The notes: generated from the sequence alone by a model not told the origin. Counted from the first letter of the stretch, positions 1,632 through 46,436 are shown. The stretch: 64,000 bases of DNA from a virus (IMGVR_UViG_3300045988_151219:74124-138123), one strand, 5' to 3'. Made by a program: numbers and translations.

Positions 1632-3794
1632 CTACCTCAAAGATTTTGTTAATATCTGAAACACACATAATAACCCTGTCTGCAACTCTAAGTCAGATTT
1701 AAAAGAATCTTCTAAAATCCACGGAGCTAACAAGAACTTTATTATCTTAAGAGTATTAGCTCCAAATAAGCTGTTAATCTTCTTAGACTGCTCCGCATAA
1801 GGCGGATAATTAACCATGGCTTTTGTCATGTCGGCTAAAACTTCCTGGAAGTCCTGCTGCACAGTTACTAAGGGAAATTTTAATATACTGTCTATTGCTT
1901 TAAAACAGGTCTCTTTATCTTTCTTTGCAATCGATTCAAGAAATAGATAAATATAAGGATGTGCTGTCCGTACAGATTGTACAAAAGCATCATGACCTAT
2001 TAAGAAGTATTTGTCTAAAAGCATGTGTGCATTTCTCATATGCCCTCTTGAACGTTTGCAAATCACATCTATTACATTATCAGGTACTTCTTTGTTTAGC
2101 TCTTTAGAAATATTCTTTAAATTCTTGAACATTTCTTCTTTTGATATACCATCAAATTTAAGCTCTATAGAACGTGACCTTATTGTCTTGAGTAATTTCT
2201 CCGGATTAGTTGTAGCAAATATAAAGAAAACTTTTTTAGGAGCTTCTTCTATAATCTTAAGTAAAGCTGCTTGCCCCACACTCGAAATCAGTTGGGCCTC
2301 GTCCAGCACTACTACTTTATAGAATGAACCTGAGGAATAGGCAAACGTATCTCTTAGTTCTCTAATATGGTCTACAGAACCCATAGCCGCTGAATCAAGT
2401 TCCATATAATACGGCGTTGTATCTAAGTCTACTGTATTATCGTGATTTATTTCTCTGGCAAAAATTCTCGCACAAGTTGTATTGTGATTATATGTACCTT
2501 GGGCGTAAAATTCATGACACTTCTCTGTTGTTATGTCATAAACATCTTCTACTGTGTCAGTGTATGATAAAATCTTAGCATATGTATACCCTATTAATTC
2601 ATCAAAACATGACGGCAAATACCCTAATTCATTCTTAAGATTAATAAGAGTCCTTTCTGTAACACATCTACCCGCTCGTAAATTATGTAAAACAGCACGT
2701 ACTCTACTCGTTTTTCTTCCTTTTACATAATGTTCTAATTCTTCCGTCATTCTTCTTGTAACTGAAATAACATTTCTGGAATTAGCTGTATTTTTATCTT
2801 CTAAAATAAACTGTCTACTTGTCCATTTAAAGTCCTGTAAAGAATGATTTTTTATATATATTTTATAATAAACATTTCCTTTATATCGTCCGGTAGTTAG
2901 TGTCTTAGGTATTATCTTTGTAGCTACCCCTAAAGACATGAAAATCTCCTGGTACCCCTTTACCAGCTTTTCAGACTTGCTCATTAATTCAAACTGATTC
3001 TTTGAAATGCACCCATCAGTATCAAATAAGCCCTGAATGAATGCTTTCCTCGTCTCTACGTCTGTATTAAAAACCCATTCCGGAACATACTTATTTCCTG
3101 CTCCGTGCATGATTTCTATACTCATCTTGTCTTTTAAAGAAGACCTTATATTATAAACGTCTTCTTTTCTCTTATCTTTAGACAGCTTCCCGCTCCAGCC
3201 TACAATTCTTTTAAATTTCTTGCAAGCTTTGAGTGAACCACAATACCCTGCTGCTGTTCTGTCTCTGCTGCACCACCCATCAGAAAGCCACACGGCTTGT
3301 GCATAAGCTAAATCAGGACAGTGTTTAGCATTCTTAAACTCTATAGGTTTCTTAGGAAATAAAATATAATCTCCTATTTTTAAATTGCCTAATGGAAATA
3401 ATCCAATTTCCCCATCTTTAAAAGCTAAGACTTTGTGTCTTAGTGTTCCCCTTACATTATTATTTACATTTAAATTTACTGTACGGACTAAAGCTTCTCT
3501 TTCAAAATATTTTGCTACTATCTTGTCTTTACCAAACCTGCCCTCTGTCTCTCCTTTACAGTCTGTAAATCCCTCGTCTATCCCTTTACAGTAATCTCCT
3601 ATTTTTACATATCCATTCTCTGTTAAAATGCGTATATCTCCTGGAACGCATTTTCCACAACCATATTCTCCATAAAGTATAAGAGACCTCGGAGCTTCTT
3701 CCGGTTTAGCTACCAGTGATTTTAATATTTTTACATTTAAATCCTGCCCTACTACTTCATCAAAAGTTGTCGGTCTGAATTGCTGCGTAATCAA
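1632..3794 (-). CDS. Clamp-loader AAA+ ATPase (DnaX/RFC-like) interrupted by an intein
   Basis: Exteins join to GEYGCGK+TTCARIF, restoring Walker A GxxGxGKT. Walker B VVVLDEAQ, sensor-1 FIFATTN, and TIRSRS box are present. Confidence 0.85.
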   Translation of the reverse strand: MITQQFRPTTFDEVVGQDLNVKILKSLVAKPEEAPRSLILYGEYGCGKCVPGDIRILTENGYVKIGDYCKGIDEGFTDCKGETEGRFGKDKIVAKYFEREALVRTVNLNVNNNVRGTLRHKVLAFKDGEIGLFPLGNLKIGDYILFPKKPIEFKNAKHCPDLAYAQAVWLSDGWCSRDRTAAGYCGSLKACKKFKRIVGWSGKLSKDKRKEDVYNIRSSLKDKMSIEIMHGAGNKYVPEWVFNTDVETRKAFIQGLFDTDGCISKNQFELMSKSEKLVKGYQEIFMSLGVATKIIPKTLTTGRYKGNVYYKIYIKNHSLQDFKWTSRQFILEDKNTANSRNVISVTRRMTEELEHYVKGRKTSRVRAVLHNLRAGRCVTERTLINLKNELGYLPSCFDELIGYTYAKILSYTDTVEDVYDITTEKCHEFYAQGTYNHNTTCARIFAREINHDNTVDLDTTPYYMELDSAAMGSVDHIRELRDTFAYSSGSFYKVVVLDEAQLISSVGQAALLKIIEEAPKKVFFIFATTNPEKLLKTIRSRSIELKFDGISKEEMFKNLKNISKELNKEVPDNVIDVICKRSRGHMRNAHMLLDKYFLIGHDAFVQSVRTAHPYIYLFLESIAKKDKETCFKAIDSILKFPLVTVQQDFQEVLADMTKAMVNYPPYAEQSKKINSLFGANTLKIIKFLLAPWILEDSFKSDLELQTGLLCVFQILTKSLR
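2481..3650 (-). mobile_element. Intein with LAGLIDADG homing-endonuclease domain (390 aa, residues 49-438 of the clamp loader)
   Basis: Starts CVPGDIRILTENGYVKIGDY (block A), has TLRH (block B) and LAGLIDADG-like AVWLSDGWC and FIQGLFDTDGCIS, and ends YNHN followed by Thr+1. Junction codons were checked on the DNA (TGC at 3648-3650, AAT at 2481-2483, ACA at 2478-2480). Confidence 0.85.
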
Positions 3795-3807
3795 AATAAG
3801 CTCCCCC

Positions 3808-4509
3808 TTAAATATTGCATCCTAATATTGACAGTTGTGTTTTGTAATATTCTTCTAAATAGTCAGCTTCATATGATTTTCCAAAATACCTATAATCTGT
3901 AAGTGTTCCTACGTCTTTTATTCCGTCAGGATGGTCAGCTATTGAAACATCAAAATATTTCTGTAGCTTATAATACTCTCTTTTGCTTCCTTTCTTTCCC
4001 TGTTCATCGTTATCTAACAGCAAGATTACTTTATTGGTAAGTGTCTTGAGTATCTCTCTTCCCATCGATGAAAGCCCTGTAGACTGCAAAGCAAATACAT
4101 ATGGATAAATCTTTCCTAAGGTATCCCTGTCTTTCAAGCCCTCTACTAATACTATAGGCGTTTGCGGTGTAAATTTCTTGTCTAAAGAAAAAATACCATA
4201 TGGAAATTCTCGATAATTACCATAGGTAATAAATTTCTTGTTGATTAAACTTCGGAATATAATATAAAAGTCTTTATCTTGAAAATGATTTACTATACCT
4301 ACTACCAGTTTTTCGTCAATAATAAAAGTCTTTAAATAAGCGGGAAGTAATGAAGCTTTTCCCGCTAACTGTATTAAAGACTGCATTGTGAATAATCTAT
4401 AGTTAGATAAGTCGTAATATAACCCCATATAAGAATACGGGTCTACTACGTCTTTCTTTTTTAGTCTAAAGCTAACTTTTAACAGTTCGCTTACTGGTAG
4501 TGTACTCAT
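3808..4509 (-). CDS. Toprim-domain protein (DnaG-type primase catalytic part)
   Basis: IVLVEGLKDRDTL (Toprim Glu) and VILLLDNDEQGKKG (DxD). Confidence 0.6.
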   Translation of the reverse strand: MSTLPVSELLKVSFRLKKKDVVDPYSYMGLYYDLSNYRLFTMQSLIQLAGKASLLPAYLKTFIIDEKLVVGIVNHFQDKDFYIIFRSLINKKFITYGNYREFPYGIFSLDKKFTPQTPIVLVEGLKDRDTLGKIYPYVFALQSTGLSSMGREILKTLTNKVILLLDNDEQGKKGSKREYYKLQKYFDVSIADHPDGIKDVGTLTDYRYFGKSYEADYLEEYYKTQLSILGCNI

Positions 4510-4510
4510 C

Positions 4511-4855
4511 CTAATCCTCTTTGTTGATTTTTTCTAATTCTTTATTTATCTGTGTGACTGTCTGCGTTAAATCACTTGACTTAGAATAATAAGAAGCTGT
4601 TATGTCTATAATAGATATTTTATTAGGCATTACTCCATATAAGCAGACAATAAATAAGAAAAGAAGTGTTGCTCTTTTTATCCTTTTCTTATTGCTTGTA
4701 TTTAAATCAATCTCAAACGGATTAGTAATAAAAACAAGAAAACATCCACCAAATAAAATACTTAATATAATTACTATAACTCTTAATGTCTCATGAACAT
4801 TGCAGTATAAATTCAAAGCATATATAACCCATGGAGATATAAACAGTTCGTCCAT
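4511..4855 (-). CDS. Small membrane protein
   Basis: Two hydrophobic helices (VIVIILSILFGGCFLVFI, ATLLFLFIVCLYGV). Confidence 0.45.
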   Translation of the reverse strand: MDELFISPWVIYALNLYCNVHETLRVIVIILSILFGGCFLVFITNPFEIDLNTSNKKRIKRATLLFLFIVCLYGVMPNKISIIDITASYYSKSSDLTQTVTQINKELEKINKED

Positions 4856-4884: not shown

Positions 4885-4894
4885 TATATTATAC
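4885..4894 (-). promoter_or_regulatory. Class B promoter-like motif (minus strand CAGTATAATATAAGAG)
   Basis: Plus-strand tatattatac sits in the gap between stop 4889 and ATG 4855; one of 10 intergenic copies. Confidence 0.45.
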
Positions 4895-7800
4895 TGTTTT
4901 CTTCGACAAATTGTACAGTAATAATCGTCCTGTACATGTAGGACACATCTTATTATAATCGTGCTTAAACAAAGAAAAAGTTAAAGAGTTTCCACACTTG
5001 CAGTTTGCATCTACTTTCATTGTCTGGTCTACCATCTGAAAAATACAGTCCTGTAAGCATTGACGGTATGACCTCTTCGTGATTGTGGACATTACTAAAT
5101 ATGGTGAAATATAAGCCGGCAGTGACATATAAACTAAAGCTCCCGCTTTGTACGGTATAGCTAATATCTTGTCTCTTAATTCCGGCATATACTTTGTTGT
5201 AAATGTCATCAGTGTATTAAGACTCTTTCCAGCTACTTTTATATTCCAGTCTGTATTTGCCATTTTGTTTTTAAAGAAGTCTACAGAATAATCGTTTATC
5301 ACTCCTAAGTATGTTATCTCGTTTTCTCTTGACTGCTTTAAAGCATCCGCATCATCATAAACAGCTGTAACTTGACACGACTCTAATTTACTGTTTACTT
5401 CTTCTAAATGTTGTAATAAATCCTGTGCTGATACTTTTTCTTTGAAAGATACATCAAAAAGCCAGCTGCCTGTATACCAACCTCTCTGGTCGTTAGCAGA
5501 TAATAATTGACAAGAGTTTCCTTCTACAGCAAAATACTTATACGCCAATCCAGGAACAGTTTTAAAAAATTGAGATGTAACGTAATACTGTAAAGCATCT
5601 CTATTATAAAAGAACCATTTAGGATTCTGCTTTACAATAAATCTAAGTATTGTAGCTTTTCTTCCTTCAGAAAAAGAATTAATGACATCATCGTAATTGC
5701 TTTCATCATATATCTTTCTGGTAGTCATATATTTTATATGCTTGGCGTCACACGTCTGGCATCCTAAACATGTAGCATCCTCATTGGCTAAAGTCTTTAG
5801 ACACAGATTAGCCGAAAAGTCCATTTTCTGTGTCCTTTCCCACCACATCTTTTTTACTCTGTCAGTGACCGCCTGCATATAATCATTGGGAAATATCCAG
5901 TCTTTAGGACGTGCATTACAAAAAAAGAACATATCTTCTATTCCATGTTCTTTTAAGACTTTTACTACTATTTCCTGGCAGTTTCTTCGAAACCTACTGT
6001 AATAAACTGCTCCTTGTTCAGACATCTTTACTAAACAATCAGTTCCTGCCGGACCAAAATCTATTAGCAACTGCTCTATCCAGGTTCCCCCAAAGATTGA
6101 ATGTATCCTTACTCTTACTTTTCTTTTCTTCATCTCTTCTATCAGATAAAGAAATTGATTGCCAGGATAAAATGACATTCTTGCAGTCTTTCTATCAAGA
6201 TATCTAAGTGCTATATTTGTATAATAAAGCAACGGAGTTATATTCATCTGTAGGGATGTTTTAGCTCCGATTTTATCCCTGATAGCGAACATCTCGTCTA
6301 CTTCTGAAATGCATTCATCTATGTCTTCTTTAGTTTCATATCCGGTTTGGATATACCCCATTTTTAAGTGCATGATTTTTAAGCGGTAGATATTTCTTGC
6401 CGCCTGCATTATAGTTTCTCTTGATAGATTTTTATTTAAGAATTGATTTCTTAGTCTGTTGGAAAATCCCTCAATAGGTGCAGATACTCTGGATAATCCT
6501 AATTTCTTTGCAATTAACAGCTGCTCCGGTGCATGTGCTATCACGTCTAACCGTTCATTTATCAAAGAAATTTTAGAAAAGTATTCCGCCCCTTTCTTTA
6601 TCATGTCCATAAACCTATAGTAGTAGTTTAGATTATAACTATAAAAAGTTACTTTATTAGCAGCAGAAGTCTTTCTTGCATACTCTAAATTCTTCTCTAC
6701 ATTATCTAAAGTACGTTCATGATAGTTTCCGGCTATAGTTGCTTCGTGACAATTGTGAGTATAAAGCATGTTGTAGCATGTCCGATGGTTAGGCAAGGTC
6801 TCTGTAGTATATGTTACTTCTTCTCTTCCTAATTTCTTCACAGACATAACATATACAGGAAAATAATCCCCGCTCGCTAAAGCTTTAAAGATTCTCGGTA
6901 AAGAACTATAAGAATATTTCTTTAATGTCTCTATAGAAATATTATTTCCTTGATATGATACAAAAGCTTTGTTATCTTTATATAAACATAAGTGAATATA
7001 TTCTCCTGTGATTTCTACAAATTTTCCTACCATACGATATAACAGTTGAATATCTGATTTAAACTTATATTCTGTTATCTTAGTTAAATCGTTTTCTACA
7101 TACTCTAAATATTTCTCTATGCTCTCTTTAGCATAATAGAATACATGGTCAGAAACTCTTTTGTTTTTAAAGTCTTCTTCGTATCTCTCTTTTAGCTCTT
7201 TTTCAGACGGAATATACTTGCCATAAGATTCTAAACCCATCTTGATATAAAAGACATCTCTTATATTGATGTCTTTTGCTAAGACTTCTTCTTCTCTTCC
7301 TTCAGATAAAATCATCCTCATCATGCGATGGTTTTCTGAACAGGTGAATTTAGAACCATCTGATAAAGTAATTTCCATTAAAGGCTGCTTTGAAGCCTGT
7401 TTTACTGTTGTATATTGCTTTTCGTCTTCTCTTAAAAATCTTGTAGTAGGCACAGCCCCCACGTCTAAAAGAGACTCTATATTCTCAAGCCCTCTTCCTG
7501 TCGGTATCTTAGTTCCTGCCGGTACTGAAAAAGAACATAATGTAGAAGCCCCTGAACAGCCTGAGGATACCTGCACATCTATAGATGAACAGTTTGACCC
7601 CGCTAAGTGAAAAGTCTTTAAAGGAAAGCCTTCCCATTCATCAAGCTCAAGTTTATTTACTTGCACTCTTTCCGGAAGTCTTTCGTCTAAAGGCTTAATT
7701 GATTTTATTGTATAGTTGTCTTCCGCATAATCCCATTTATATTTATTGGGATAAAAAATATAGTGGTTTAAAATATTCCTCGATATTAAATACTCCATGA

Positions 7801-8473
7801 ACCCATTAGTATCATGCAGATTTTTACCCTCTTTTACTTTATAGTTGTATGCACTTTCAATCAGTGTAGGTAAAATAACTTCTCCATACCCATGAATAGT
7901 CATGTCTACTAAAGATGAGCCTAAGTCTTTCCCCTCTTCATCGTAAACATGTCCATAAAGTATCGGGGCTTCCGTTGCAGAAGCTCCCCCCATTATAAAA
8001 GGCGGAATCCTTAAATCTTTTGCTCTTCCCTCTACCGTGTAAGGTATGCCTGATTTCTTGAGTATTATCGGAATATGAAACATTTCCGGAATTAAAGCCA
8101 TTGATACTAATACTAAGTCATAGTCTTTTACCGGATGGTGGGAACAGTTACCAAAAAGATAAGGAATGTGGTTTTCTTCATAAACCTTTTCATTCCCCTC
8201 TTCGATAAAGTAACAGTTGTCTACAAAGATATCTTCGCCATGCTTTTCATGACATAGCCAATTCAAGCAGCTAAAGGAGTTAGATACTGTCTTGTGTGAC
8301 CCTGGCAGTAATAACACTACAAGTATTTTTAGTTTTGATTTATCCCATTTCTGTATAGAATCTTGGTTATTGTCTACCGCATACAGATATTCAGGATAAT
8401 TCATCTTCTTCATATTATTATCAAGAAATCTCTCTATCTCTTCATGAGTGACTTCTATTAAATCATTCATCAC
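4889..8473 (-). CDS. Giant radical-SAM protein of the TIGR03960/TIGR03936 (radical SAM + radical-SAM-linked) type, interrupted by an intein
   Basis: N-terminal B12-binding-like layout (KILVVLLLPGSHK..., YDLVLVSMALIPE..., PPFIMGGASATEAP). Cys cluster GCSGASTLCSF|C HEATIAGNYHER after intein removal. Core VSAPIEGFSNRLRNQFLNKNLS and LKMGYIQTGYETKEDI resemble FAPEAGTQRLRDVINKG and YFMIGLPTETDEDI of that family as I recall it. Confidence 0.6.
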   Translation of the reverse strand: MMNDLIEVTHEEIERFLDNNMKKMNYPEYLYAVDNNQDSIQKWDKSKLKILVVLLLPGSHKTVSNSFSCLNWLCHEKHGEDIFVDNCYFIEEGNEKVYEENHIPYLFGNCSHHPVKDYDLVLVSMALIPEMFHIPIILKKSGIPYTVEGRAKDLRIPPFIMGGASATEAPILYGHVYDEEGKDLGSSLVDMTIHGYGEVILPTLIESAYNYKVKEGKNLHDTNGFMEYLISRNILNHYIFYPNKYKWDYAEDNYTIKSIKPLDERLPERVQVNKLELDEWEGFPLKTFHLAGSNCSSIDVQVSSGCSGASTLCSFSVPAGTKIPTGRGLENIESLLDVGAVPTTRFLREDEKQYTTVKQASKQPLMEITLSDGSKFTCSENHRMMRMILSEGREEEVLAKDINIRDVFYIKMGLESYGKYIPSEKELKERYEEDFKNKRVSDHVFYYAKESIEKYLEYVENDLTKITEYKFKSDIQLLYRMVGKFVEITGEYIHLCLYKDNKAFVSYQGNNISIETLKKYSYSSLPRIFKALASGDYFPVYVMSVKKLGREEVTYTTETLPNHRTCYNMLYTHNCHEATIAGNYHERTLDNVEKNLEYARKTSAANKVTFYSYNLNYYYRFMDMIKKGAEYFSKISLINERLDVIAHAPEQLLIAKKLGLSRVSAPIEGFSNRLRNQFLNKNLSRETIMQAARNIYRLKIMHLKMGYIQTGYETKEDIDECISEVDEMFAIRDKIGAKTSLQMNITPLLYYTNIALRYLDRKTARMSFYPGNQFLYLIEEMKKRKVRVRIHSIFGGTWIEQLLIDFGPAGTDCLVKMSEQGAVYYSRFRRNCQEIVVKVLKEHGIEDMFFFCNARPKDWIFPNDYMQAVTDRVKKMWWERTQKMDFSANLCLKTLANEDATCLGCQTCDAKHIKYMTTRKIYDESNYDDVINSFSEGRKATILRFIVKQNPKWFFYNRDALQYYVTSQFFKTVPGLAYKYFAVEGNSCQLLSANDQRGWYTGSWLFDVSFKEKVSAQDLLQHLEEVNSKLESCQVTAVYDDADALKQSRENEITYLGVINDYSVDFFKNKMANTDWNIKVAGKSLNTLMTFTTKYMPELRDKILAIPYKAGALVYMSLPAYISPYLVMSTITKRSYRQCLQDCIFQMVDQTMKVDANCKCGNSLTFSLFKHDYNKMCPTCTGRLLLYNLSKKTV
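6752..7528 (-). mobile_element. Intein (259 aa, Ser1 class, residues 316-574) with no recognisable endonuclease motif
   Basis: SVPAGTKIPTGRGLENIESL fits block A (xLxxGTxIxT), TCSENH fits block B, and EEVTYTTETLPNHRTCYNMLYTHN ends in HN followed by Cys+1. Junction codons were checked on the DNA (TCA 7526-7528, AAT 6752-6754, TGT 6749-6751). Confidence 0.75.
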
Positions 8474-9363: not shown

Positions 9364-10560
9364 TTAAACACTTTCTTTATATAATATGGCGTCATATTCG
9401 TTAGACGATAAACCCATTCCTTTTTCTGTCAGATAAAAAGCAATGGACGACTGTGTGCTAAAAGCTTTGAGGAAAATATAAAGCAGTTTAGACGATATAG
9501 TAAAGTTGGAACTCATCGGAGTAGTATCTCCTTCTTTCGACCCTACCAGTGTGAATTTTGAATCGCCTTTCTTTGATTTCAAAATAAATTCAACACCTGA
9601 ATCATTATAGTTAAATTCTACTTTACCTGTACTTGTCGGCAAGATAGATGAAATATCCACCAGCTTATAAAGCTGTGCATAATCAATATAGCATTTTCCT
9701 TTTGCCGCATGGATTATATTATCTATTCCGTCTCTGATAGCCTGCGGTACTGTTGAGTCTGATACTAAGAAAGCATACTCAAAATTGGAACCTTTAATGA
9801 CTTTCCTCTTTGTCACTACTGTCTCGTCTGTCTCCAATATCTCAAGCTCTTCTTCTACCTCTGATAAGACATTCCTAAGCACGTTTAAATCTTTCACTTT
9901 TAAATCCATATTGCTGAAAGATTTTCTGCATGAAATGTTACCCCACATATAAGAAGCATACGCTATGTCTTTGTCACACAGAATACGTCTTTCTGCCGGT
10001 GATACTGCATTATTAACTACTGGCGTAAAGTCTTTTACTACAGACAGCAAGTCTATTGAGTTAAGAGACTGCTCTTTGTGAACACTGTCTTTAAACATAA
10101 ATTTACTGTTGTCTACTGTATATGTTTCTAAAACGATATCTCCACCAAACAGCTTTAATTTATAATTGTCTCCGTCTTTGAAAATAACCGTCTTATTCCC
10201 TATAGCTCTTGAAAGCTTGTCTAAATAGTCTGTCGGTATGACGATATCTTCCGTCAGCACATTCTCTACATTTATTCTATCTACTTCATACTTGAAATAA
10301 ACGTCAAAGTCTGTAATATAGAATTGTACTTTGTCTCCTTCAGGATGTATCAAAATAGCTTTTGAAATGACGTCTCTTCCTGATACTACAGATAATGTCT
10401 TCGCTATTTTTATTAAAAACTTGAACTGCACCCCTGAAAACTTAATGTGAGGTGCTGTAATCTCTTCTTCTACCGTTCCAAAGTTGGACAAGTCTACGTC
10501 TTCCGTATTGTCCATTATAATATTGTCTAATTCGATTTCATTGAACACTGTCTCTTCCAT
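9364..10560 (-). CDS. Sliding-clamp (DnaN beta-like) protein
   Basis: 398 aa. The layout FKFLIKIAKTLSVVSGRDVISKAILIHPEGDKVQFYITDFDVYFKYEV...IVIPTDYLDKLSR resembles DnaN domain I, and the gene sits between nuclease and clamp-loader genes. Confidence 0.5.
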   Translation of the reverse strand: MEETVFNEIELDNIIMDNTEDVDLSNFGTVEEEITAPHIKFSGVQFKFLIKIAKTLSVVSGRDVISKAILIHPEGDKVQFYITDFDVYFKYEVDRINVENVLTEDIVIPTDYLDKLSRAIGNKTVIFKDGDNYKLKLFGGDIVLETYTVDNSKFMFKDSVHKEQSLNSIDLLSVVKDFTPVVNNAVSPAERRILCDKDIAYASYMWGNISCRKSFSNMDLKVKDLNVLRNVLSEVEEELEILETDETVVTKRKVIKGSNFEYAFLVSDSTVPQAIRDGIDNIIHAAKGKCYIDYAQLYKLVDISSILPTSTGKVEFNYNDSGVEFILKSKKGDSKFTLVGSKEGDTTPMSSNFTISSKLLYIFLKAFSTQSSIAFYLTEKGMGLSSNEYDAILYKESV

Positions 10561-11539
10561 GCTGGATTCTCCTTACTATTCCTCTTTGCTCTAAATAATA
10601 AATAATTAAATCTTTCGCTTCTTTGCCGGCAGTTATATTGTCTAAAATAGAATATACTGATGAATTACTTCTCTTCTTCGACATCATCTCTATCAAGGTG
10701 TCAAAGTTATTCGTAAGCTTGCTTGTGAGTTTAGTGATATTCTCACTCTCCATATCTTCACTGCTAAATACCAGCTTGGGGTCTGTTATCTTCTCCTGAT
10801 ACCTTTGATATTGTATTCCGTCTCCTAATGTCAGCACATCAATATTAAAATAATCCCTCTTGATATTATAATCTTTAGATGAACCTCTCGACATAGACCC
10901 AGGACGAATTATACTCTGGTCTCCTACATATTCTATCGGATAAGGAACGTGGTCATGCCCTAATACATAGTAATCATACCCATATTTTGTGACGTCTTCT
11001 TTGTATATCGTCTCAAATCTTTCTCCATACGGAAAATTGTAGTATGAGTGTGAGATGAGAATATTATACTCTCCTCGGTTTGGAAGCTCATTCACAGCTT
11101 TAATAGGTGTATTATAGTCATTCCCTACTAAGACATACTTATCACCATTTATTGTATATTCCAGTGTTACTAAATGCTCTATCACTTTTGCGTTATAAAG
11201 CAACCCTAATGCTGAACGGTGCAGATTAGCTACATTCATATATTGTATATCATGGTTGCCTGTCACTGTTAAAGCTCTAATGCCCGCTTGCTTATATTCA
11301 TTGAAGACTTCTATTACTTTATTTAAATAGTCGAACGGCTGGTGAGGTTGGTGGAAGATGTCTCCTAAAAAGATTACCGCGTCGATACCGCTCTTGCTCG
11401 CAAAGACTTTAATCTGTTTTAATTTCTCTAGCAATGCGTTGGGATAATCGTCTATTCTGCTACGGGGTGCTTGGTAATTTAAATGCAAATCTCCGATGAA
11501 TATTATATTCTTTTCAGTTAAGCTCATGATACCGACCAC
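10538..11539 (-). CDS. sbcD: Mre11/SbcD-type nuclease (metallophosphoesterase)
   Basis: FIGDLHL, LGDIFH, TVTGNHD, ISHSY, GHDHVP motifs. The true start is probably the internal MSLTEK. Confidence 0.85.
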   Translation of the reverse strand: MVGIMSLTEKNIIFIGDLHLNYQAPRSRIDDYPNALLEKLKQIKVFASKSGIDAVIFLGDIFHQPHQPFDYLNKVIEVFNEYKQAGIRALTVTGNHDIQYMNVANLHRSALGLLYNAKVIEHLVTLEYTINGDKYVLVGNDYNTPIKAVNELPNRGEYNILISHSYYNFPYGERFETIYKEDVTKYGYDYYVLGHDHVPYPIEYVGDQSIIRPGSMSRGSSKDYNIKRDYFNIDVLTLGDGIQYQRYQEKITDPKLVFSSEDMESENITKLTSKLTNNFDTLIEMMSKKRSNSSVYSILDNITAGKEAKDLIIYYLEQRGIVRRIQHGRDSVQ

Positions 11540-12167
11540 CCTCTACTTCGTATGTCTTCACCGCATTATGCATAAGACGCTCGTCATGCGTGATAAGTAC
11601 GAATATGAACCCTAACCTCTTGGCTATGTCTTCTATAAACATCTTGAGATAAATTATATATTTGTCCGACAGCTGCGTGAACGCTTCGTCTAAAAATATA
11701 ATAGGCGACAGTCCGTGATATTGTATGTAGAATACCTGGAACAAAAAACCTATAGTAACTAATACCCCGCCACCGACTGAATCCTTTAGAGATGACTTTA
11801 AAATGTCTTCTCCATTCTTTTCAATCAAATAAAGGTTTGCTTGCTTTAAGTTACGCTTGTCTTCTATCTCTATCTCTATTTTATATTCTTTGTCATAAAA
11901 GATAGTCTTTAAACCCTCATTGATGAAGTTTGCTGCCTCGTTAATGTGTTCAGTAGCCATCGTCTGTATGAGGTTCTTTAAAAGGTTTAAGCCCTCTTCT
12001 TGCAATGTACTTTTCTTAGTAAGCTCTTCGTATTCTTTCTTCTTCTCTTCATAGTTAAGCTTGAACTGGCTTAGCACTCGCTTCGTGTTCGTGATTGAGC
12101 TTTTCAGACTGATACTTTGCATTTTTGCTTGGTTGTAACGTGATATTATCTCTTCGGCGTTTCCCAT
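11514..12167 (-). CDS. sbcC: Rad50/SbcC ATPase, C-terminal piece
   Basis: N-terminal coiled coil, then signature-like SVGGG, Walker B/D-loop IIFLDEAFTQLS, H-loop LITHDE. Confidence 0.75.
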   Translation of the reverse strand: MGNAEEIISRYNQAKMQSISLKSSITNTKRVLSQFKLNYEEKKKEYEELTKKSTLQEEGLNLLKNLIQTMATEHINEAANFINEGLKTIFYDKEYKIEIEIEDKRNLKQANLYLIEKNGEDILKSSLKDSVGGGVLVTIGFLFQVFYIQYHGLSPIIFLDEAFTQLSDKYIIYLKMFIEDIAKRLGFIFVLITHDERLMHNAVKTYEVEGGRYHELN

Positions 12168-12170
12168 CTG

Positions 12171-12425
12171 TCAATCTTCCTTAATATCTAAAGAAAGACT
12201 TTCTTCGGCTTTCGCTAAAGCTCTCTCTATTTCTTCACTTAACCTCTGCACTTCGGTCTCTGCTTCTTCCAAAGTGTTAAGGTTATATTTTTCTTTTAGC
12301 TCTTTAAGTAACGCTCCCTCTCTTTCTTTTAGTACAGACAGCTTCCCGCTTAATTCGACCTGCTCTTCTTTCAGCTTGTCTCTTTTCTCGGTTAGCTCTC
12401 TGAACCGCTCTTTCATTTCTTCCAT
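12171..12425 (-). CDS. Coiled-coil piece between the Rad50 halves
   Basis: 84 aa of pure heptad-like E/K/L sequence with its own AGGAGGAG RBS. Its stop TGA lies 3 nt before the next ATG. Confidence 0.5.
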   Translation of the reverse strand: MEEMKERFRELTEKRDKLKEEQVELSGKLSVLKEREGALLKELKEKYNLNTLEEAETEVQRLSEEIERALAKAEESLSLDIKED

Positions 12426-12438
12426 CTTCGCTCCTCCT

Positions 12439-13665
12439 TTATTTTAAGATTGAGTGGCAGTATGGACAGGCTTTGAATGTTGTCAGTTCTTCCTCCACTT
12501 CTTTTTGAGTTGAAAGTGTCTTTGTCAGAAGCTGCCCCGCTGCCACTCTTTCTTTGAATACCTGTGATAGTTCCTTTGTTAGCTCTTCTATATATAATAC
12601 TTTGGCTGGGTCTATCTTTTTCAGGCTCTCACTATTTTTTAGCTTTTTGTTTATTTTTTGTATCTTGCTCTCTATTTTCTCTATATTATTCTTTGTCTCT
12701 TTTTCTTCTTCTATCCTCTTTGACATTAGCTCTGCTGTCTCAATCTTCGTTGTTAGCTTGCTTAAGTCTTCTGTGTTCTGTATCTTATTCTCTATATTCT
12801 TTATATTATCTTTTTTCTCTTTTATTGCTTCTTTTACGTTTTTAGTTTCTTTAATTATTGTATTAATTGCTTCTATCTTCTCTATATCTTCTTTTTTAGG
12901 TAATTTGATATTATTTAGCTTATTCATTATATTGGTATTTTTGTTTTCTATCTTCTCTATATTATTCTTTGTCTCTTTGATGTCTTTTTCTATATTGTGT
13001 ATGTGATTTAGTTCGTTAGCTTTACTGTCTAATTTTAAGATTGTATCGGCTGCTTCTTCGGACTCTTTTAGTTTATTGAGTCGGTTGCTTTCTTCTAAAG
13101 CAAGATTTTTGTTGGTGTCCATGGTATTTTTACAAAGCAAGATGTCTCGCTTGATACCTTTGAAGTCCTGCACCATGTCTGCTTGGACTTCCCCTAAATT
13201 TTCAAATTCAGAAGAGTATGAAAAGAATTTGAAAAGTTCTGATGGTGTCCTATTCAGTAAAAATGGATATGCCATCTGTGAATAAAAGTTAAGACGCTCT
13301 TTTGTTCCTGTAACGTCTACTTCTTTTATACCAAACGTATTCGCTAATTCCTCAAGCTGATTTCTTCCTATCTTAGAATATGTTTTGCCATCAATTATAT
13401 AAGTAGTCTTGATAGATGAATCTTTGTCTCTCGCCCATATGAAATAATGATTCCGATAAGAGAACTTGACAGCAGCTTTTTTAGCTCCCTTAGTAATGTG
13501 TGATTCTCTGGCTAAATTAAAAATTGATGTTTCTAACGCTCTAAATAAAGAAGATTTACCCTGATTGCTGGAACCTAAGATTAAGTTCAGTCCAGGCTTA
13601 AATTCTATTTTAGCATTTTTTATTCTTTGATAGTTTCTAATTTCAATCTTGAGTGAGTTATCCAT
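12439..13665 (-). CDS. sbcC: Rad50/SbcC ATPase, N-terminal piece ending at the zinc hook
   Basis: Walker A LILGSSNQGKSSLFRAL, a long K/E/N coiled coil, and C-terminus ...FKACPYCHSILK (CxxC hook, 12457-12468). Confidence 0.8.
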   Translation of the reverse strand: MDNSLKIEIRNYQRIKNAKIEFKPGLNLILGSSNQGKSSLFRALETSIFNLARESHITKGAKKAAVKFSYRNHYFIWARDKDSSIKTTYIIDGKTYSKIGRNQLEELANTFGIKEVDVTGTKERLNFYSQMAYPFLLNRTPSELFKFFSYSSEFENLGEVQADMVQDFKGIKRDILLCKNTMDTNKNLALEESNRLNKLKESEEAADTILKLDSKANELNHIHNIEKDIKETKNNIEKIENKNTNIMNKLNNIKLPKKEDIEKIEAINTIIKETKNVKEAIKEKKDNIKNIENKIQNTEDLSKLTTKIETAELMSKRIEEEKETKNNIEKIESKIQKINKKLKNSESLKKIDPAKVLYIEELTKELSQVFKERVAAGQLLTKTLSTQKEVEEELTTFKACPYCHSILK

Positions 13666-14664
13666 TTATGTTTTTATCTCTCCTTTCTCCAGTTCAACAA
13701 TATGTTTCCCTATATCATATACTACGTTTACTGTTACAGCATTTCCTGCTTGTTTATATAATTGTTCAGTGCTATTACATAATAAAGCTTTATGAAACTG
13801 CTCGTCAGTAAACCCTTGTAGCCCCCAGCACTCCTTTGGAGTAAGCTTTCTTATATAACACTTAACTCCATTAGATAATAAAACTCCGCTTATCTCACCT
13901 TTATGGTTGCTTGTTCCTTTATTGCAACCAGTCGTAAGACATCTTGCATATTCAGTTAGTTTTACTTCTTTCTCTGAAAGGTCTATGAATTGACAGTATA
14001 AACCTGTTTTTGCTCCTATACCTCCACCTTGCGATGTTATAGTACAAGCCAAATCTAAATTATATACTCTATCTCCTTGAGAACCATTTATAATTTCTTT
14101 AAGAGTTCTCTCACTTTTTCTTGTGACAGGAAGTAGCGACTGTCCTTTGTGTTCTCCATTATATCCCGCAATGTACACTCGCTCACGGCTTTGCGGAACT
14201 CCGTAGGCTTTTGAGTTGTAAACACGCCATTCAAGACTGTACCCTCTCGCAGCCATTTCAGACAAGACCTGGAAGAATCCCCAGCCATCATCAATTGAAA
14301 GCAAGTTCTTAACGTTTTCAGCGATAAGCCATTTGGGTCTATTTCCGCCTGCTTCGTCAAGAAGCCGCATAATCTCATAAAATAAGCCACTTCTGGTTCC
14401 TCGTTTGATACCTGCTTGTTTCCCTGCAATGGATACATCTTGGCATGGAAACCCGAAGGTCCATATGTCGGCTTTTGGTATTTTGTCGCCTCTAACTTTT
14501 TGGACATCATTTGCAAACCATAATCCCTCCGTGTTATATAAAGCTCTATAACTTCTTTGAGCATATTTATTAAATTCACACCAGCCAATACATTTCATTC
14601 CCGCCTTCTCAAACCCTGAATGAAATCCACCTATGCCAGCGAAAAAGTCAATAAAAGTTAGCAT
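13666..14664 (-). CDS. dcm: DNA cytosine-5 methyltransferase
   Basis: FIDFFAGIGGF (I), GFPCQDVS (IV), ENVKNL (VI), QSRERVYI (VIII), GNAVTVNV (X). Confidence 0.95.
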   Translation of the reverse strand: MLTFIDFFAGIGGFHSGFEKAGMKCIGWCEFNKYAQRSYRALYNTEGLWFANDVQKVRGDKIPKADIWTFGFPCQDVSIAGKQAGIKRGTRSGLFYEIMRLLDEAGGNRPKWLIAENVKNLLSIDDGWGFFQVLSEMAARGYSLEWRVYNSKAYGVPQSRERVYIAGYNGEHKGQSLLPVTRKSERTLKEIINGSQGDRVYNLDLACTITSQGGGIGAKTGLYCQFIDLSEKEVKLTEYARCLTTGCNKGTSNHKGEISGVLLSNGVKCYIRKLTPKECWGLQGFTDEQFHKALLCNSTEQLYKQAGNAVTVNVVYDIGKHIVELEKGEIKT

Positions 14665-20035: not shown

Positions 20036-20849
20036 TAGTCTTAATCAACCAGGCTCTATCTTCTAAAGAGATACTCTCACTACGTTCTAATATCATAGGA
20101 ATGTTATTCTCTAAACAATAATGAGCTATCCGTAAAAGTTGAAGTTGCAGTTTACCACTATTAATATACGTTTCTGAATGCCTATCCAGATGTGACCCCT
20201 GCTTAACAAAATAAGGAATTGAGTTTAAGTGAACCAAAGAAGCATTGCTTAAAACCTTGTTCAAATAAGTCTTGTCTGTTAAGTCATCTCCATCAGCGTA
20301 AGCATGTTCCGTATCATATGTTATATATACGTTTTTGTAGTTTCCCTGTAACTGGAGTAAGTTCTTTACTACACCTATCTTAGTAGACTTTTTAGACCCT
20401 GGGTCGTTCTCATAAGTAAATTTTATTTTCTTTGAGCTTTGTCTATAAAATTCCTGACTAATATAAGAAAGCTCTTTGATATTTTCCTCATAAGACAGTT
20501 CAGGATTATATGCTCCGCAATGAGATACAAGATAAATGTTTATTCCATACTTGTCTACCATAAAAGACATTTTCTTATCTATATCTAAACAGTATTTTAA
20601 GATAAAAGCTTTATGAGTTTCTTTAATAAGAGTAAAAATAAAAGGTAAATGTATTACTATATTCACATTATCACTTGAACTTTTATTCTTTACAAGATAT
20701 TTACTCATTTCTAAGAATCGCTGATATCTCGGAACTTCCCATTGTGTAGGTGAAGATAAAAACATTTGAAACGTTCTTACTCCTTGAGTAAAAGCTTCTT
20801 TAAAGAAATCTACATTATCAACATGTACTCCGATTAAGTCGTACTGCAT
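20007..20849 (-). CDS. AP endonuclease IV-like (xylose-isomerase TIM barrel)
   Basis: VIHLPFIF, VSHCGAY, YENDPGS, YDTEHAYADGDDL, LVHLNSIP...GSHLDRHS parallel the Nfo metal-ligand motifs. Confidence 0.65.
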   Translation of the reverse strand: MQYDLIGVHVDNVDFFKEAFTQGVRTFQMFLSSPTQWEVPRYQRFLEMSKYLVKNKSSSDNVNIVIHLPFIFTLIKETHKAFILKYCLDIDKKMSFMVDKYGINIYLVSHCGAYNPELSYEENIKELSYISQEFYRQSSKKIKFTYENDPGSKKSTKIGVVKNLLQLQGNYKNVYITYDTEHAYADGDDLTDKTYLNKVLSNASLVHLNSIPYFVKQGSHLDRHSETYINSGKLQLQLLRIAHYCLENNIPMILERSESISLEDRAWLIKTIEDKFYAAK

Positions 20850-22075
20850 ACCTTGCCCTCTTTTTTCTGTGACTTAGCTCTTATATCATAAATAGCATTT
20901 TTAAGCTCATCAGCCTTATCCGTTTTCTCCCACGGGAAAATAACATTTCCAAAGAACCCTATTTTAGCCGTCATAGCATAATTCCAATCTGTAGGATGTC
21001 TTAAGTTAAGCTCTCTTTCTATCCCTGCCGGCGTTAAGTCAAATACCTGTCTAACTGCTCTTAAGATAATAGATGTAGGTATGTCTGATGTTCCAAAGCA
21101 TTTTATATTAACGGAACAGGGATTTTCTACACCAATAGCATAAGAAAGCTGTACTTCTACTTTATGAACAAGACCGGAAGCTACTAAATTCTTTGCTACA
21201 TATCTTGCCATTAATGCTCCTGATATATCCTGCTTGGTCGGGTCTTTACCATTCATAGAACCCCCACCAGCCGGAAAATACATACCATAAGAATCTACAA
21301 TAATTTTTCTTCCTGTTAATCCAGAATCTACAGCCGGACCAAACTCTGTAAATGACCCTGTAGGATTGATATAAAATCTCTTAACATCTTTAATATCAAA
21401 TCCGCTTGACTGTAATATCGGTGCAATGATTGTCTCTTTTACTCTTTTCCTTAACTCTGTTATTCCTATGTCTTTTGTTGAAGCTATAGAAATAACCACC
21501 GTGTCTACAATAAGTTTTTCTAATCCTCTATTATATCTTATTGTTACTTGAGCTTTTCCATCAGGATAAAAGGGATTGCCTAAATCAGCTAAAGCTACCT
21601 CGGTCATTCTGCATGTAAGCTTTCTTGCTAATTCAATAGGCAGCGGCATAAAGTTAGGTGTTTCATCAATAGCTCCCCCACATACTAACCCCTGGTCACC
21701 CGCTCCCTGTGTTTCAGACTGCTTTCCTCTAACATAAGTATCTTCAACACCTTGGTTAATCTCTTCTGATTGATTAGTTACTCTTACTTCTATTGATACT
21801 GTGTCATAACTAAAGCCTTTAGATGGGTCTATATAACCTAATGATTTAATAGCTTCTCTTGCTACTTTTTCATAAACACAAAAATACTTAGACTTTACTT
21901 CCCCCATAATAAGTAAAAAATCTTTACATACTGCACATTCAATTCCTACGTGTGCTTCTGAATCGTTAGCTAAAATATCATCCATAATTGACATAGCGAT
22001 AAAATCACACATTTTGTCCGGATGTCCTACACATACCGATTCAGAAGTAAATAAATAGCCTGTAACCTTATTCAT
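20834..22075 (-). CDS. metK: S-adenosylmethionine synthetase
   Basis: FTSESVCVGHPDKMCD, GAGDQGL, DGKAQVT, GGGSMNGKDPTKQDISGALMARYVAKNLVASGL. Confidence 0.95.
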   Translation of the reverse strand: MNKVTGYLFTSESVCVGHPDKMCDFIAMSIMDDILANDSEAHVGIECAVCKDFLLIMGEVKSKYFCVYEKVAREAIKSLGYIDPSKGFSYDTVSIEVRVTNQSEEINQGVEDTYVRGKQSETQGAGDQGLVCGGAIDETPNFMPLPIELARKLTCRMTEVALADLGNPFYPDGKAQVTIRYNRGLEKLIVDTVVISIASTKDIGITELRKRVKETIIAPILQSSGFDIKDVKRFYINPTGSFTEFGPAVDSGLTGRKIIVDSYGMYFPAGGGSMNGKDPTKQDISGALMARYVAKNLVASGLVHKVEVQLSYAIGVENPCSVNIKCFGTSDIPTSIILRAVRQVFDLTPAGIERELNLRHPTDWNYAMTAKIGFFGNVIFPWEKTDKADELKNAIYDIRAKSQKKEGKVCSTT

Positions 22076-29126: not shown

Positions 29127-29213
29127 TGGTGCGAAAGGTGGGACTTGAACCCACACGGTATTTCTACCAGGAGATTTTAAGTCTCCAGCGTATTCCGATT
29201 CCGCCACTCTCGC
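29127..29213 (-). tRNA. trnL-UAA: tRNA-Leu(UAA), type II, CCA encoded
   Basis: Manual cloverleaf: acceptor GCGAGAG/CTTTCGC, anticodon arm GGAGA-CTTAAAA-TCTCC, long variable arm, T arm GTGGG-TTCAAGT-CCCAC, ACCA end. Confidence 0.9.
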
Positions 29214-29384
29214 ATATAGACAAGCTTTTACAGAACCAGCTATTGCTGCCTTGTATGAACAATGGGAGAAAGCAGCAATATGAAGAAAAGTGTTTAGGGA
29301 TATTTTCTTAGCTGTAAGTAAAAGTATGAGGAGCGTCTGTAAAAGCCCATCTTATATAAGCAGTTTAATGACTTACTTAGGTCA
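29214..29384 (-). ncRNA. Structured 171-nt spacer between tRNA-Ser and tRNA-Leu (candidate ncRNA)
   Basis: Perfect 11-bp long-range helix GCUUUUACAGA/UCUGUAAAAGC enclosing a perfect 9-bp helix UAUUGCUGC/GCAGCAAUA, plus hairpin ATGAC-ttacttag-GTCAT. Confidence 0.3.
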
Positions 29385-29475
29385 TGGCGGATAGAGTGAG
29401 ATTCGAACTCACGCATGCATCTCTGCACCTAACGGTTTTCAAGACCGTCCTCTTGAGCCTCTTGAGTATCTATCC
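29385..29475 (-). tRNA. trnS-UGA: tRNA-Ser(UGA), type II, CCA encoded
   Basis: Acceptor GGATAGA/TCTATCC, anticodon arm ACGGT-CTTGAAA-ACCGT, long variable arm, T arm GTGAG-TTCGAAT-CTCAC, GCCA end. Confidence 0.9.
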
Positions 29476-29478
29476 ATG

Positions 29479-29554
29479 TGGTGGAAGTATCAGGACTTGA
29501 ACCTGCATCTGACGCTTATAAGGCGTCTGCTCTAACCGGTTGAGCTATACCTCC
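29479..29554 (-). tRNA. trnI-UAU: tRNA-Ile(UAU), CCA encoded
   Basis: Acceptor GGAGGTA/TACTTCC, D arm AGCTCAACCGGTTAGAGC, anticodon arm GACGC-CTTATAA-GCGTC, T arm GCAGG-TTCAAGT-CCTGA (the last pair is not perfect), ACCA end. Confidence 0.85.
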
Positions 29555-31654: not shown

Positions 31655-31885
31655 CTACTCCAGGAGGAATCCATTCAAGCTCTTCAAATCAATTGAATCT
31701 CCTTCAGAATCCTTAAGCCGATTTATATAATTTTGATAAAAGTTTGGATTAAACCACTCTATAGGTGTTGAAATATCTTCTAACCCTTCTATTTCTCCTA
31801 AGATATCATCAGGACTGTTTTCTGATATTATCAAATCATCTATAGTCATAATATTATCTGCTTTCTTTAACAAGCTGTTCAACAA
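31655..31885 (-). CDS. Hypothetical acidic protein
   Basis: 76-aa ORF ending in a double TAG TAG; overlaps the adhesin 3' end by 32 nt. Confidence 0.4.
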   Translation of the reverse strand: MLNSLLKKADNIMTIDDLIISENSPDDILGEIEGLEDISTPIEWFNPNFYQNYINRLKDSEGDSIDLKSLNGFLLE

Positions 31886-46399: not shown

Positions 46400-46436
46400 A
46401 ATATATATAAATAAGAGTGTAGAAATTTACACTCTT
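46400..46436 (-). terminator. Possible terminator overlapping the polA stop
   Basis: AAGAGTGTA-(6 nt)-TACACTCTT followed by an A/U-rich tract; the U-tract is weak. Confidence 0.4.

Follow-up and report, generated by a model that had tools for sequence, protein, structure and literature searches.

A phage radical SAM protein related to the bacterial TIGR03960 and TIGR03936 families, split by an intein and encoded in a replication module

In bacteria, the radical S-adenosylmethionine (SAM) family TIGR03960 and the family TIGR03936, whose Pfam counterpart DUF2344 has been assigned to the pseudouridine synthase clan in Pfam (PMC7955657), are encoded by adjacent genes. We found this pair beside rplS-lepB-ylqF-rnhB in Ruminococcus albus, beside rplU-rpmA-obgE in Collinsella and followed by a Rne/Rng ribonuclease gene in Acetoanaerobium, and at least one bacterial fusion in the same order exists (L110, reading ...CTGCGIC – linker – ...YVSHLD). 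A 936-aa open reading frame (ORF) in L019 was also considered as a bacterial fusion and was discarded: it has no TIGR03936 signal, and an ORF call extended too far in high-GC DNA is the probable explanation. A possible member of the family is Slr0320 of Synechocystis, a B12 and radical SAM protein with a high-light phenotype (PMC8065906). Here we describe a gene on the minus strand of a 64,000-nucleotide stretch of viral DNA (IMGVR_UViG_3300045988_151219:74124-138123, hereafter the window, taken as a whole) whose 934-aa product, once an intein is removed, appears by sequence comparison to be a single-chain, strongly diverged phage version of this bacterial pair. That it is a real radical SAM enzyme homologous to TIGR03960 and TIGR03936 we consider very probable.

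The gene occupies the longest ORF in its part of the window (4889..8473, minus strand, 1194 codons), as seen from the ORF list and translation. This ORF opens with a GTG at 8473 that has an ATG right behind it at 8470; because AGGAG stands 6 nt upstream of the ATG, and because the gene call of a 98% identical protein of 1193 aa (P0001) begins at the equivalent position, the start is probably ATG 8470 and not GTG 8473. Within the precursor, a block running from S316 to H573-N574 and followed by C575 as Cys+1 (precursor numbering) has the terminal residues of a class 1 intein, and it is missing in nine intein-free homologs of 926-958 aa, which align without a gap across the junction (...CSF↓C.E..., the arrow marking the junction). 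Its removal leaves 935 aa, or 934 aa counted from the ATG, so that the intein, its boundaries and the spliced length of about 935 aa given in a preliminary description of the window are all confirmed by these homologs. Using the 259-aa intein as a query, we obtained a match to PF14890 (Intein_splicing) with an E-value of 3.2e-5 and 24.2 bits against a gathering score of 35.8, while scans with Pfam and PHROGs found no LAGLIDADG or HNH homing endonuclease in it; a bigger, homologous intein at the same site in P0013 has PF14890 and LAGLIDADG_3 matches. The copy in the window is a mini-intein or a degenerate one.

Splicing also restores the match to the Pfam radical SAM profile PF04055, from profile position 2 onwards: the unspliced ORF scored 28.0 bits, below the gathering score of 29.5, and the spliced protein 41.0 bits (residues 301-463), a gain of 13 bits. 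This hidden Markov model (HMM) search of the spliced sequence, which the preliminary description had proposed as a check, supports the radical SAM identity. The intein lies between the second and third cysteines that bind the iron-sulfur (Fe-S) cluster, and Cys+1, the residue of the last splicing step, is the third cluster ligand (C316 of the spliced protein). The cluster site therefore exists only after splicing; a regulatory use of this dependence is speculation.

Residue numbers from here on are those of the spliced protein, and conservation was assessed over 55 intein-free phage-type sequences sharing 20-46% identity with the window protein. The cluster motif is C306-x6-C313-x2-C316, exactly as first read (GC-x6-C-x2-C), with all three cysteines invariant. 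Across the phage sequences the loop reads SSGCSGxxxxCSFCxEG, that is C-x4-6-C-x2-C (x4 in 5, x5 in 35 and x6 in 11 of the 51 members scored), whereas the canonical radical SAM spacing is C-x3-C-x2-C. Further invariant residues are F315 in the loop, D85, G108, P157, G163 and G195 in the N-terminal domain, and R382, G410, N421, K422, K445, E454 and D458 in the barrel (E409 and G452 reach 98%), the barrel residues falling on the SAM-binding motifs of TIGR03960 in hhalign alignments. Four more cysteines, C632, C643, C646 and C649, are 100% conserved, match the C-terminal Cys motif of bacterial TIGR03960 and form a putative auxiliary Fe-S or metal site.

The N-terminal domain matched PF19864 (Radical_SAM_N2) over residues 80-210 (E-value 1.2e-7, 31.7 bits against a gathering score of 29). 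In an AlphaFold2 model of the whole protein built from 13 sequences (predicted local distance difference test, pLDDT, 87.4; predicted template modelling score, pTM, 0.88), this domain alternates strands and helices at a pLDDT of ~90. Searching the PDB with Foldseek gave as best matches CysS, TokK, OxsB, the B12-free AprD4 and a MiaB-RNA complex, as well as LipA and BioB for the barrel alone, with a probability of 1.0 to MiaB, CysS, LipA, BioB and others; a sequence search of the PDB returned only noise-level RimO/TM_1862 matches. The Pfam match, the model and Foldseek agree with the B12-binding-like fold that had been proposed for this domain. Judged by motifs and predicted fold, the features of a SAM-cleaving [4Fe-4S] enzyme are all present and under purifying selection.

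Searched against NCBIfam, the spliced protein gave a single substantial match, TIGR03960 (E-value 1e-22, 80.4 bits, profile positions 57-586 of 605); NrdG and QueE, the characterized families that the preliminary description had weighed as other homes for the protein, were not among the matches at E<=10. The curated cutoff of TIGR03960 is 462.3 bits, a score that the true bacterial member P0161 exceeds (589.5) and that the window protein and its relatives P0003 (91.9) and L009 (30.7) do not reach. We then compared the 55 phage-type sequences with nine bacterial TIGR03960 proteins using hhalign, yielding an alignment of 581 columns (probability 100%, E-value 1.2e-54, identity ~18%) in which phage positions 17-639 correspond to bacterial positions 17-611. 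It includes GG and D..GEGE-like motifs in the N-terminal domain, and the core strands APIEGFSNRLRN and LKMGYIQTGYETKEDI, which had been quoted as following the bacterial family, indeed lie on the TIGR03960 motifs APEAGSQRMRDVINKN and KLYFMIGLPTETxED.

The two groups are thus collinear over ~600 residues and share the Radical_SAM_N2 domain, the core motifs (APEAGS/AIEGIS, ..NKN, K.G.I.TG.ET.ED) and the C-terminal Cys motif. They differ in the cluster loop, which in the bacterial proteins is an invariant C270-x3-C274-x2-C277 (RGC.RGCRFCQAG) as opposed to the C-x4-6-C-x2-C of the phage proteins; in architecture, the phage protein being always fused to a second component and often interrupted by inteins; and in genomic location, in replication modules for the phage gene and beside RNA and ribosome genes for the bacterial ones. 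Because of the score (80 versus 462 bits) and the non-canonical Cys spacing, we place the phage proteins in a separate branch outside the bacterial equivalog, so that of the earlier label "TIGR03960-like" the distant, end-to-end homology stands and family membership does not. The first bacterial TIGR03960 proteins matched by the phage profile, P0161 and its relatives, belong to Candidatus Gastranaerophilales (Melainabacteria), in which (L011) the TIGR03960 gene is not adjacent to a TIGR03936 gene; since the word index biases which sequences are picked up, these matches are not evidence on the phage host.

The second component had been likened to TIGR03936, and here sequence profiles of the families gave no signal. 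Scanning 30 family members at E<=10, Pfam and NCBIfam detected nothing in residues 625-935, with no match to PF10105 in the 30 C-terminal domains and none to TIGR03936, and a local HMM built from five true TIGR03936 members gave sub-threshold matches only. These five proteins were retrieved from annotated records and verified at 157-190 bits. With them alone as the template, hhalign produced a collinear alignment at a probability of 1.7%; using deep profiles of 110 phage C-terminal domains and 83 TIGR03936 sequences (the 5 plus 78 from metagenomes), it aligned positions 58-255 of the phage domain to positions 8-209 of 244 in TIGR03936 over 189 columns (probability 93.1%, E-value 3.2e-7), and the controls (one reversed and five column-shuffled templates) stayed at probabilities <=0.3% and <=18 columns. 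Given this match and its clean controls, we conclude that the domain is a homolog of TIGR03936/DUF2344 that has diverged strongly.

A separate AlphaFold2 model of the C-terminal region (pLDDT 90.8) gave Pus10, TruA, PUS3, a mitoribosome assembly factor and Cbf5 as the first PDB matches in Foldseek (E-values from 7e-4, probabilities up to 1.0), and all solved structures matching above noise are RNA-binding pseudouridine synthases or derivatives of them. The domain shares with TIGR03936 its place, directly behind the TIGR03960-type Cys motif, and a pseudouridine-synthase-clan fold, which comes from the clan assignment (PMC7955657) for TIGR03936 and from the model for the phage domain; it differs in escaping the family HMMs, in having lost the family signatures and in carrying an extra C-terminal zinc ribbon, whose full motif is found in 21 of the 55 members (C901 is >=90% conserved, and a few members have weak Zn_ribbon Pfam matches). 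It likewise shares the fold of TruA, Pus10, PUS3 and Cbf5 and, unlike in those enzymes, no aspartate is >=90% conserved within residues 651-898; lacking a conserved catalytic aspartate, it is not a pseudouridine synthase. The TIGR03936-like part of the preliminary description thus holds as a diverged homology seen in deep profile-profile comparison and fold, and fails at the level of family HMMs, DUF2344 included. As the HMM scores fall short for both families and signature motifs are lacking, we do not count the protein as a member of either curated family.

Two other groups of enzymes resemble the phage protein in layout. Like MiaB, RimO and MtaB, it combines a Rossmann-like N-terminal domain, a radical SAM core and a C-terminal domain binding nucleic acid or another substrate with a second Cys-bound site, and MiaB-RNA complexes are among its best structural matches. 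In MiaB, however, the auxiliary cluster is in the N-terminal domain and the C-terminal domain is TRAM, whereas the phage protein has no conserved Cys in its N-terminal domain, an extra Cys motif behind the barrel, a C-terminal domain of pseudouridine synthase fold and no HMM membership. Cobalamin-dependent (class B) radical SAM enzymes and the B12-free AprD4 have in common with it an N-terminal B12-binding-like Rossmann domain followed by a radical SAM barrel; CysS, TokK, OxsB and AprD4 match at low TM-scores (0.24-0.30 of the query) and are without a pseudouridine-synthase-like domain.

To assess the extent of the family, we relied on an exhaustive profile search of 1.84 billion representatives, which yielded 2384 proteins at E<=1e-3, of which 497 also passed E<=1e-30 (a word-indexed homolog search gave only 16-18 relatives). 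Nearly all of the best 150 matches (E<=1e-83) reach the phage-type C-terminus, and when clustered at 50% identity the phage branch has full-length matches in at least 150 clusters. No PHROG (PHROGs v4) was found for the spliced protein or the intein; DNA and protein BLAST with the gene and two divergent relatives as queries, including tblastn with the three divergent queries against 50,697 deposited phage records, matched no INPHARED phage; and BFVD holds no full-length counterpart of the radical SAM protein. One member of the 90% cluster of the window protein is in NCBI as "hypothetical protein", and its contigs measure 145-147 kb. The absence from PHROGs v4, from BFVD at full length and from the 50,697 phage genomes indicates that the family marks a sizeable uncultured phage group.

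Among 98 complete representatives, 37 (~38%) carry at least one intein-sized insertion, 17 at least two and 61 none, the largest excess over the intein-free length being ~1220 aa. Breakpoints lie near profile positions ~310, ~375-400, ~440, ~480 and ~530; they were taken from clusters of domain boundaries and a few junctions read by eye, as mapping with hmmalign was unreliable (insertions were lumped at insert states). The commonest, with about 34 cases, is the CxxC site at ~310. The junctions that are clear in alignments (CSF↓C, YSFN↓(C/A)...HN↓(T/S/C)NY and GxI(x)↓C...HN↓TGYET) are all in the radical SAM core. Like the active-site inteins of phage replication and nucleotide-metabolism proteins (ribonucleotide reductase, polymerase, helicase, terminase, clamp loader), the intein in the window is of class 1 type and sits in the most conserved motif of its host; unlike them, its host is a radical SAM enzyme and the insertion is inside the CxxC that binds the Fe-S cluster, a situation of which we found no description in the literature.

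The window forms one long minus-strand replication and recombination block with genes for a sigma factor, a clamp loader (with a LAGLIDADG intein), a Toprim protein, the radical SAM protein, a beta-clamp-like protein, SbcD, a split SbcC, a C5 methyltransferase, UvsX/RecA, an AP endonuclease, MetK, a dUTPase, two family-A polymerases, a ligase, DnaB, helicases and FEN (coordinates around the gene in Table 1). The position clamp – radical SAM – Toprim protein – clamp loader is kept in 8 diverged phage contig lineages, and the order SbcC-SbcD-clamp-...-radical SAM-(small ORF)-Toprim-clamp loader-sigma is found in the window and in L003, L004, L009 (from IMG/VR), L017, L036 and L037, whose radical SAM proteins are only 21-46% identical to that of the window. 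The gene is a conserved part of the replication/recombination block in a lineage of large phages (~145 kb) that is uncultured. BLAST comparisons between loci revealed no conserved small partner gene beside it, and in most lineages one small ORF, or none, separates it from the Toprim gene. Of the neighbours named in the preliminary description, the clamp loader and the clamp and Mre11 genes flank it as described, and the "primase" is a 233-aa Toprim-only protein, which has no cysteines and therefore no zinc-binding domain; it may act as a primase core or as a nuclease.

Table 1. Coordinates of the radical SAM gene, its parts and its neighbours in the window; residues of the mature protein are numbered after splicing
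Feature	Coordinates	Strand	Details or basis
Clamp loader (DNA_pol3_delta2/AAA), intein-bearing	1632..3794	(-)	
Toprim-domain protein	3808..4509	(-)	
Whole gene, radical SAM precursor with intein (probable start)	4889..8470	(-)	1193 codons from ATG 8470; stop codon 4889..4891
Zinc-ribbon-like element C899-x-C901 ... C918-x2-C921	4892..5002	(-)	Sequence
Pseudouridine-synthase-fold domain (predicted), residues ~651-898	5003..5746	(-)	AlphaFold2, Foldseek, deep hhalign
TIGR03960-type C-terminal extension	5747..6016	(-)	4-Cys motif C632-x10-C643-x2-C646-x2-C649 at 5750..5803
C-extein part of radical SAM core, from C316, residues 316-560	6017..6751	(-)	PF04055, invariant residues, hhalign
Intein, Ser1 ... 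His-Asn then Cys+1	6752..7528	(-)	259 aa, precursor residues 316-574 (SVPAGT...YTHN)
N-extein part of radical SAM core, C306 and C313 (GCSGASTLCSF)	7529..7591	(-)	Invariant in 55 homologs
N-terminal helical and Rossmann-like (B12-binding-like) domain, residues ~2-235	7769..8470	(-)	PF19864, AlphaFold2, Foldseek, TIGR03960 alignment
Beta-clamp-like protein	9364..10560	(-)	
SbcD/Mre11	10538..11539	(-)	

In the window, the gene between the radical SAM and Toprim genes is a 114-aa ORF (4511..4855, minus strand) whose first ~75 residues are strongly hydrophobic, so that a membrane protein is likely; the ORF matches PHROG 3878 (unknown function) and is not conserved at that position in other lineages. 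Inteins recur in other genes of the block. The one in the clamp loader carries a LAGLIDADG homing endonuclease, while the clamp loaders of L003, L004 and L037 are intein-free (~345 aa) and that of L009 has a different (LAGLIDADG_2) intein. The C5 DNA methyltransferase (13666..14664, minus strand, 332 aa) is intein-free in the window, and in L001, whose radical SAM protein is 98% identical, the same enzyme (2746..4794) has 682 aa with an intein and a LAGLIDADG hint, a presence/absence polymorphism of the intein between very close genomes. The SbcC/Rad50-like ATPase appears to be split into an N-terminal AAA_23 ORF (12439..13665, 408 aa), an 84-aa ORF (12171..12425) and a C-terminal SMC_N-like ATPase ORF (11514..12167, 217 aa), all on the minus strand; as the three-ORF arrangement recurs in L001, L003, L036 and L037, it is not a sequencing error.

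Further along the window, a SAM synthetase (MetK, 20834..22075, minus strand) was identified by three Pfam domains at E-values of 1e-30 to 1e-49 and matches PHROG 1569 ("unknown function"). It lies ~12 kb from the radical SAM gene and fits a high SAM demand of a radical SAM enzyme and several DNA methyltransferases. MetK-bearing contigs of IMG/VR and radical SAM contigs do not overlap, and no MetK was found within ±10 kb of radical SAM loci, a co-occurrence test that is uninformative given the 12 kb between the two genes in the window. Two family-A DNA polymerases (40739..42523, 594 aa, and 46436..48583, 715 aa, both minus strand) are separated by 4 kb, a gap that holds an ATP-dependent ligase gene (42539..43810), and their best matches to any deposited phage are no more than ~25% identical. 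A tRNA cluster (29127..29554, minus strand) comprises Leu(TAA), Ser(TGA) and Ile(TAT); an unmodified tRNA-Ile with a UAU anticodon is uncommon in bacteria. A 597-aa protein (31854..33647, minus strand) has the YadA head, stalk and membrane-anchor domains of a complete trimeric autotransporter adhesin, which suggests a diderm host. L017 is a phage-like contig binned in a metagenome-assembled genome of Halanaerobiaceae (diderm Firmicutes) of similar GC content (34.6%).

The explanation that we prefer, and to which as a whole we give an even chance, is that the gene encodes a phage TIGR03960+TIGR03936-type radical SAM enzyme acting on a nucleotide of a nucleic acid. The cluster bound by C306, C313 and C316 would reductively cleave SAM to a 5'-deoxyadenosyl radical, and this radical would abstract a hydrogen from whatever substrate the pseudouridine-synthase-like domain holds. 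C632, C643, C646 and C649, which sit where the catalytic and binding domains join, could bind a second cluster or a metal serving as electron sink or donor or as group donor, and the chemistry may be methylation, thiolation or other. The substrate would most likely be a nucleotide within a nucleic acid, RNA (tRNA, rRNA or an RNA primer) being somewhat likelier than DNA. Nucleic acid, and RNA in particular, is favoured because of the pseudouridine synthase fold, the MiaB-like layout and the bacterial neighbourhoods; enzymes of this fold grip RNA and flip out a base. DNA or primer RNA stays in play because of the phage context, an early replication block next to a Toprim protein. Taken separately, a nucleic-acid substrate is a balanced call, RNA as that substrate a tentative proposal and DNA a doubtful one.

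A number of points weigh against this explanation. Substrate, product and cofactor are predictions from sequence and model, and in the literature we found no described function for members of TIGR03960, TIGR03936, DUF2344 or PF10105, in agreement with the preliminary description, which had called the function of the family unknown. The C-terminal domain may be a scaffold instead of a nucleic-acid clamp: its TM-scores to pseudouridine synthases are modest (0.37-0.46), its only residues conserved at >=90% are G743 (invariant) and P865, and ISHLD, GFNPH and KKTKKG, invariant in true TIGR03936 members, are not kept in the aligned phage columns. The N-terminal domain resembles the cobalamin binders CysS, TokK and OxsB but also the B12-free AprD4 and would be B12-binding-like by predicted fold only. 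The bacterial neighbourhoods come from three loci, the many methyltransferases account equally well for a high SAM demand, and the position of the phage gene argues for DNA and replication as much as for RNA.

A rival reading is a replication-coupled radical reaction directed at DNA or a deoxynucleotide, for instance a new post-replicative base hypermodification against restriction or a repair resembling that of spore photoproduct lyase (SPL). The preliminary description, otherwise correct in its essentials, had suggested such a reaction, needed during replication, from the gene's place and its intein; we regard it as possible, not as the best-supported reading, and on the whole as rather improbable. 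DNA-acting radical SAM enzymes exist, namely SPL and the radical SAM enzymes in thymidine hypermodification. The gene lies between clamp and Toprim/clamp-loader genes in the 8 diverged lineages, the richness of the window in DNA methyltransferases together with MetK makes DNA modification part of the phage lifestyle, and inteins are frequent in the family, as they are in many replication proteins. The argument nevertheless draws only on where the gene lies and on the presence of an intein, with a sigma factor gene in the same block and dUTPase and MetK elsewhere in the window; only RNA enzymes are known to have the fold of the binding domain, the neighbours of the bacterial homologs are RNA and ribosome genes, and beside the radical SAM gene we found no conserved genes accessory to DNA modification (kinase, glycosyl- or amino-transferase). 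A bolder form, which we hold to be quite unlikely, is that the lineage uses a replisome-coexpressed radical SAM enzyme beside Toprim for an undescribed radical modification of phage DNA or of RNA primers and RNA-DNA hybrids, the bacterial pair being its RNA-acting counterpart and the intein in the Fe-S loop a redox- or iron-sensitive switch.

Rather improbable, too, is a substrate that is no nucleic acid at all, either a protein, for example one of the replisome or the ribosome, or else a cofactor or other small molecule; many B12-domain radical SAM enzymes act on such substrates, and the pseudouridine-synthase-like domain would then be a structural lid only. The nearest characterized relatives by HMM and fold include enzymes that modify small molecules or proteins, namely CysS, TokK, OxsB, AprD4, the Gln C-methyltransferase of methyl-coenzyme M reductase and BzaD, the C-terminal domain is poorly conserved and without catalytic Asp or TIGR03936 signatures, and the ribosomal proteins L19, L21 and L27 encoded near the bacterial genes are possible substrates themselves. 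Yet no conserved candidate for a peptide or protein partner was found beside the phage gene, and the pseudouridine synthase fold and MiaB-like layout suit nucleic acid better. A decaying or non-enzymatic relic, retained chiefly to carry a selfish intein, or a misread member of a known family (NrdG, QueE, MiaB), is very improbable and close to refuted: the non-canonical Cys spacing, the unspliced PF04055 score of 28 against 29.5 bits and the very low TIGR03960 score would fit it, but the residues of the cluster site and the SAM motifs stay invariant among members sharing 20-46% identity, hundreds of clusters have intact ORFs, 61 of the 98 complete members are intein-free, and NCBIfam gave no match to NrdG, QueE or MiaB-type equivalogs.

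Returning to the TIGR03960+TIGR03936-type enzyme, its kind is known, and what the phage branch adds is the fusion, the altered cluster loop, the zinc-ribbon tail, the richness in inteins and the fixed place in a replication module. This branch, in which the two components are fused, purifying selection on the protein is strong and the gene is fixed in the replication/recombination module, provides an independent handle on TIGR03960/TIGR03936, a large and widespread radical SAM system for which we found no assigned function in the literature. Expression may be easier for the single-chain phage protein than for the two bacterial ones; together with its confident predicted structure, this could make the open question of function testable. 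The family is also a dense host of inteins, in ~38% of representatives and at five or more sites, and its commonest site, in the Fe-S CxxC, would make it a clean system for the coupling of splicing and cluster assembly.

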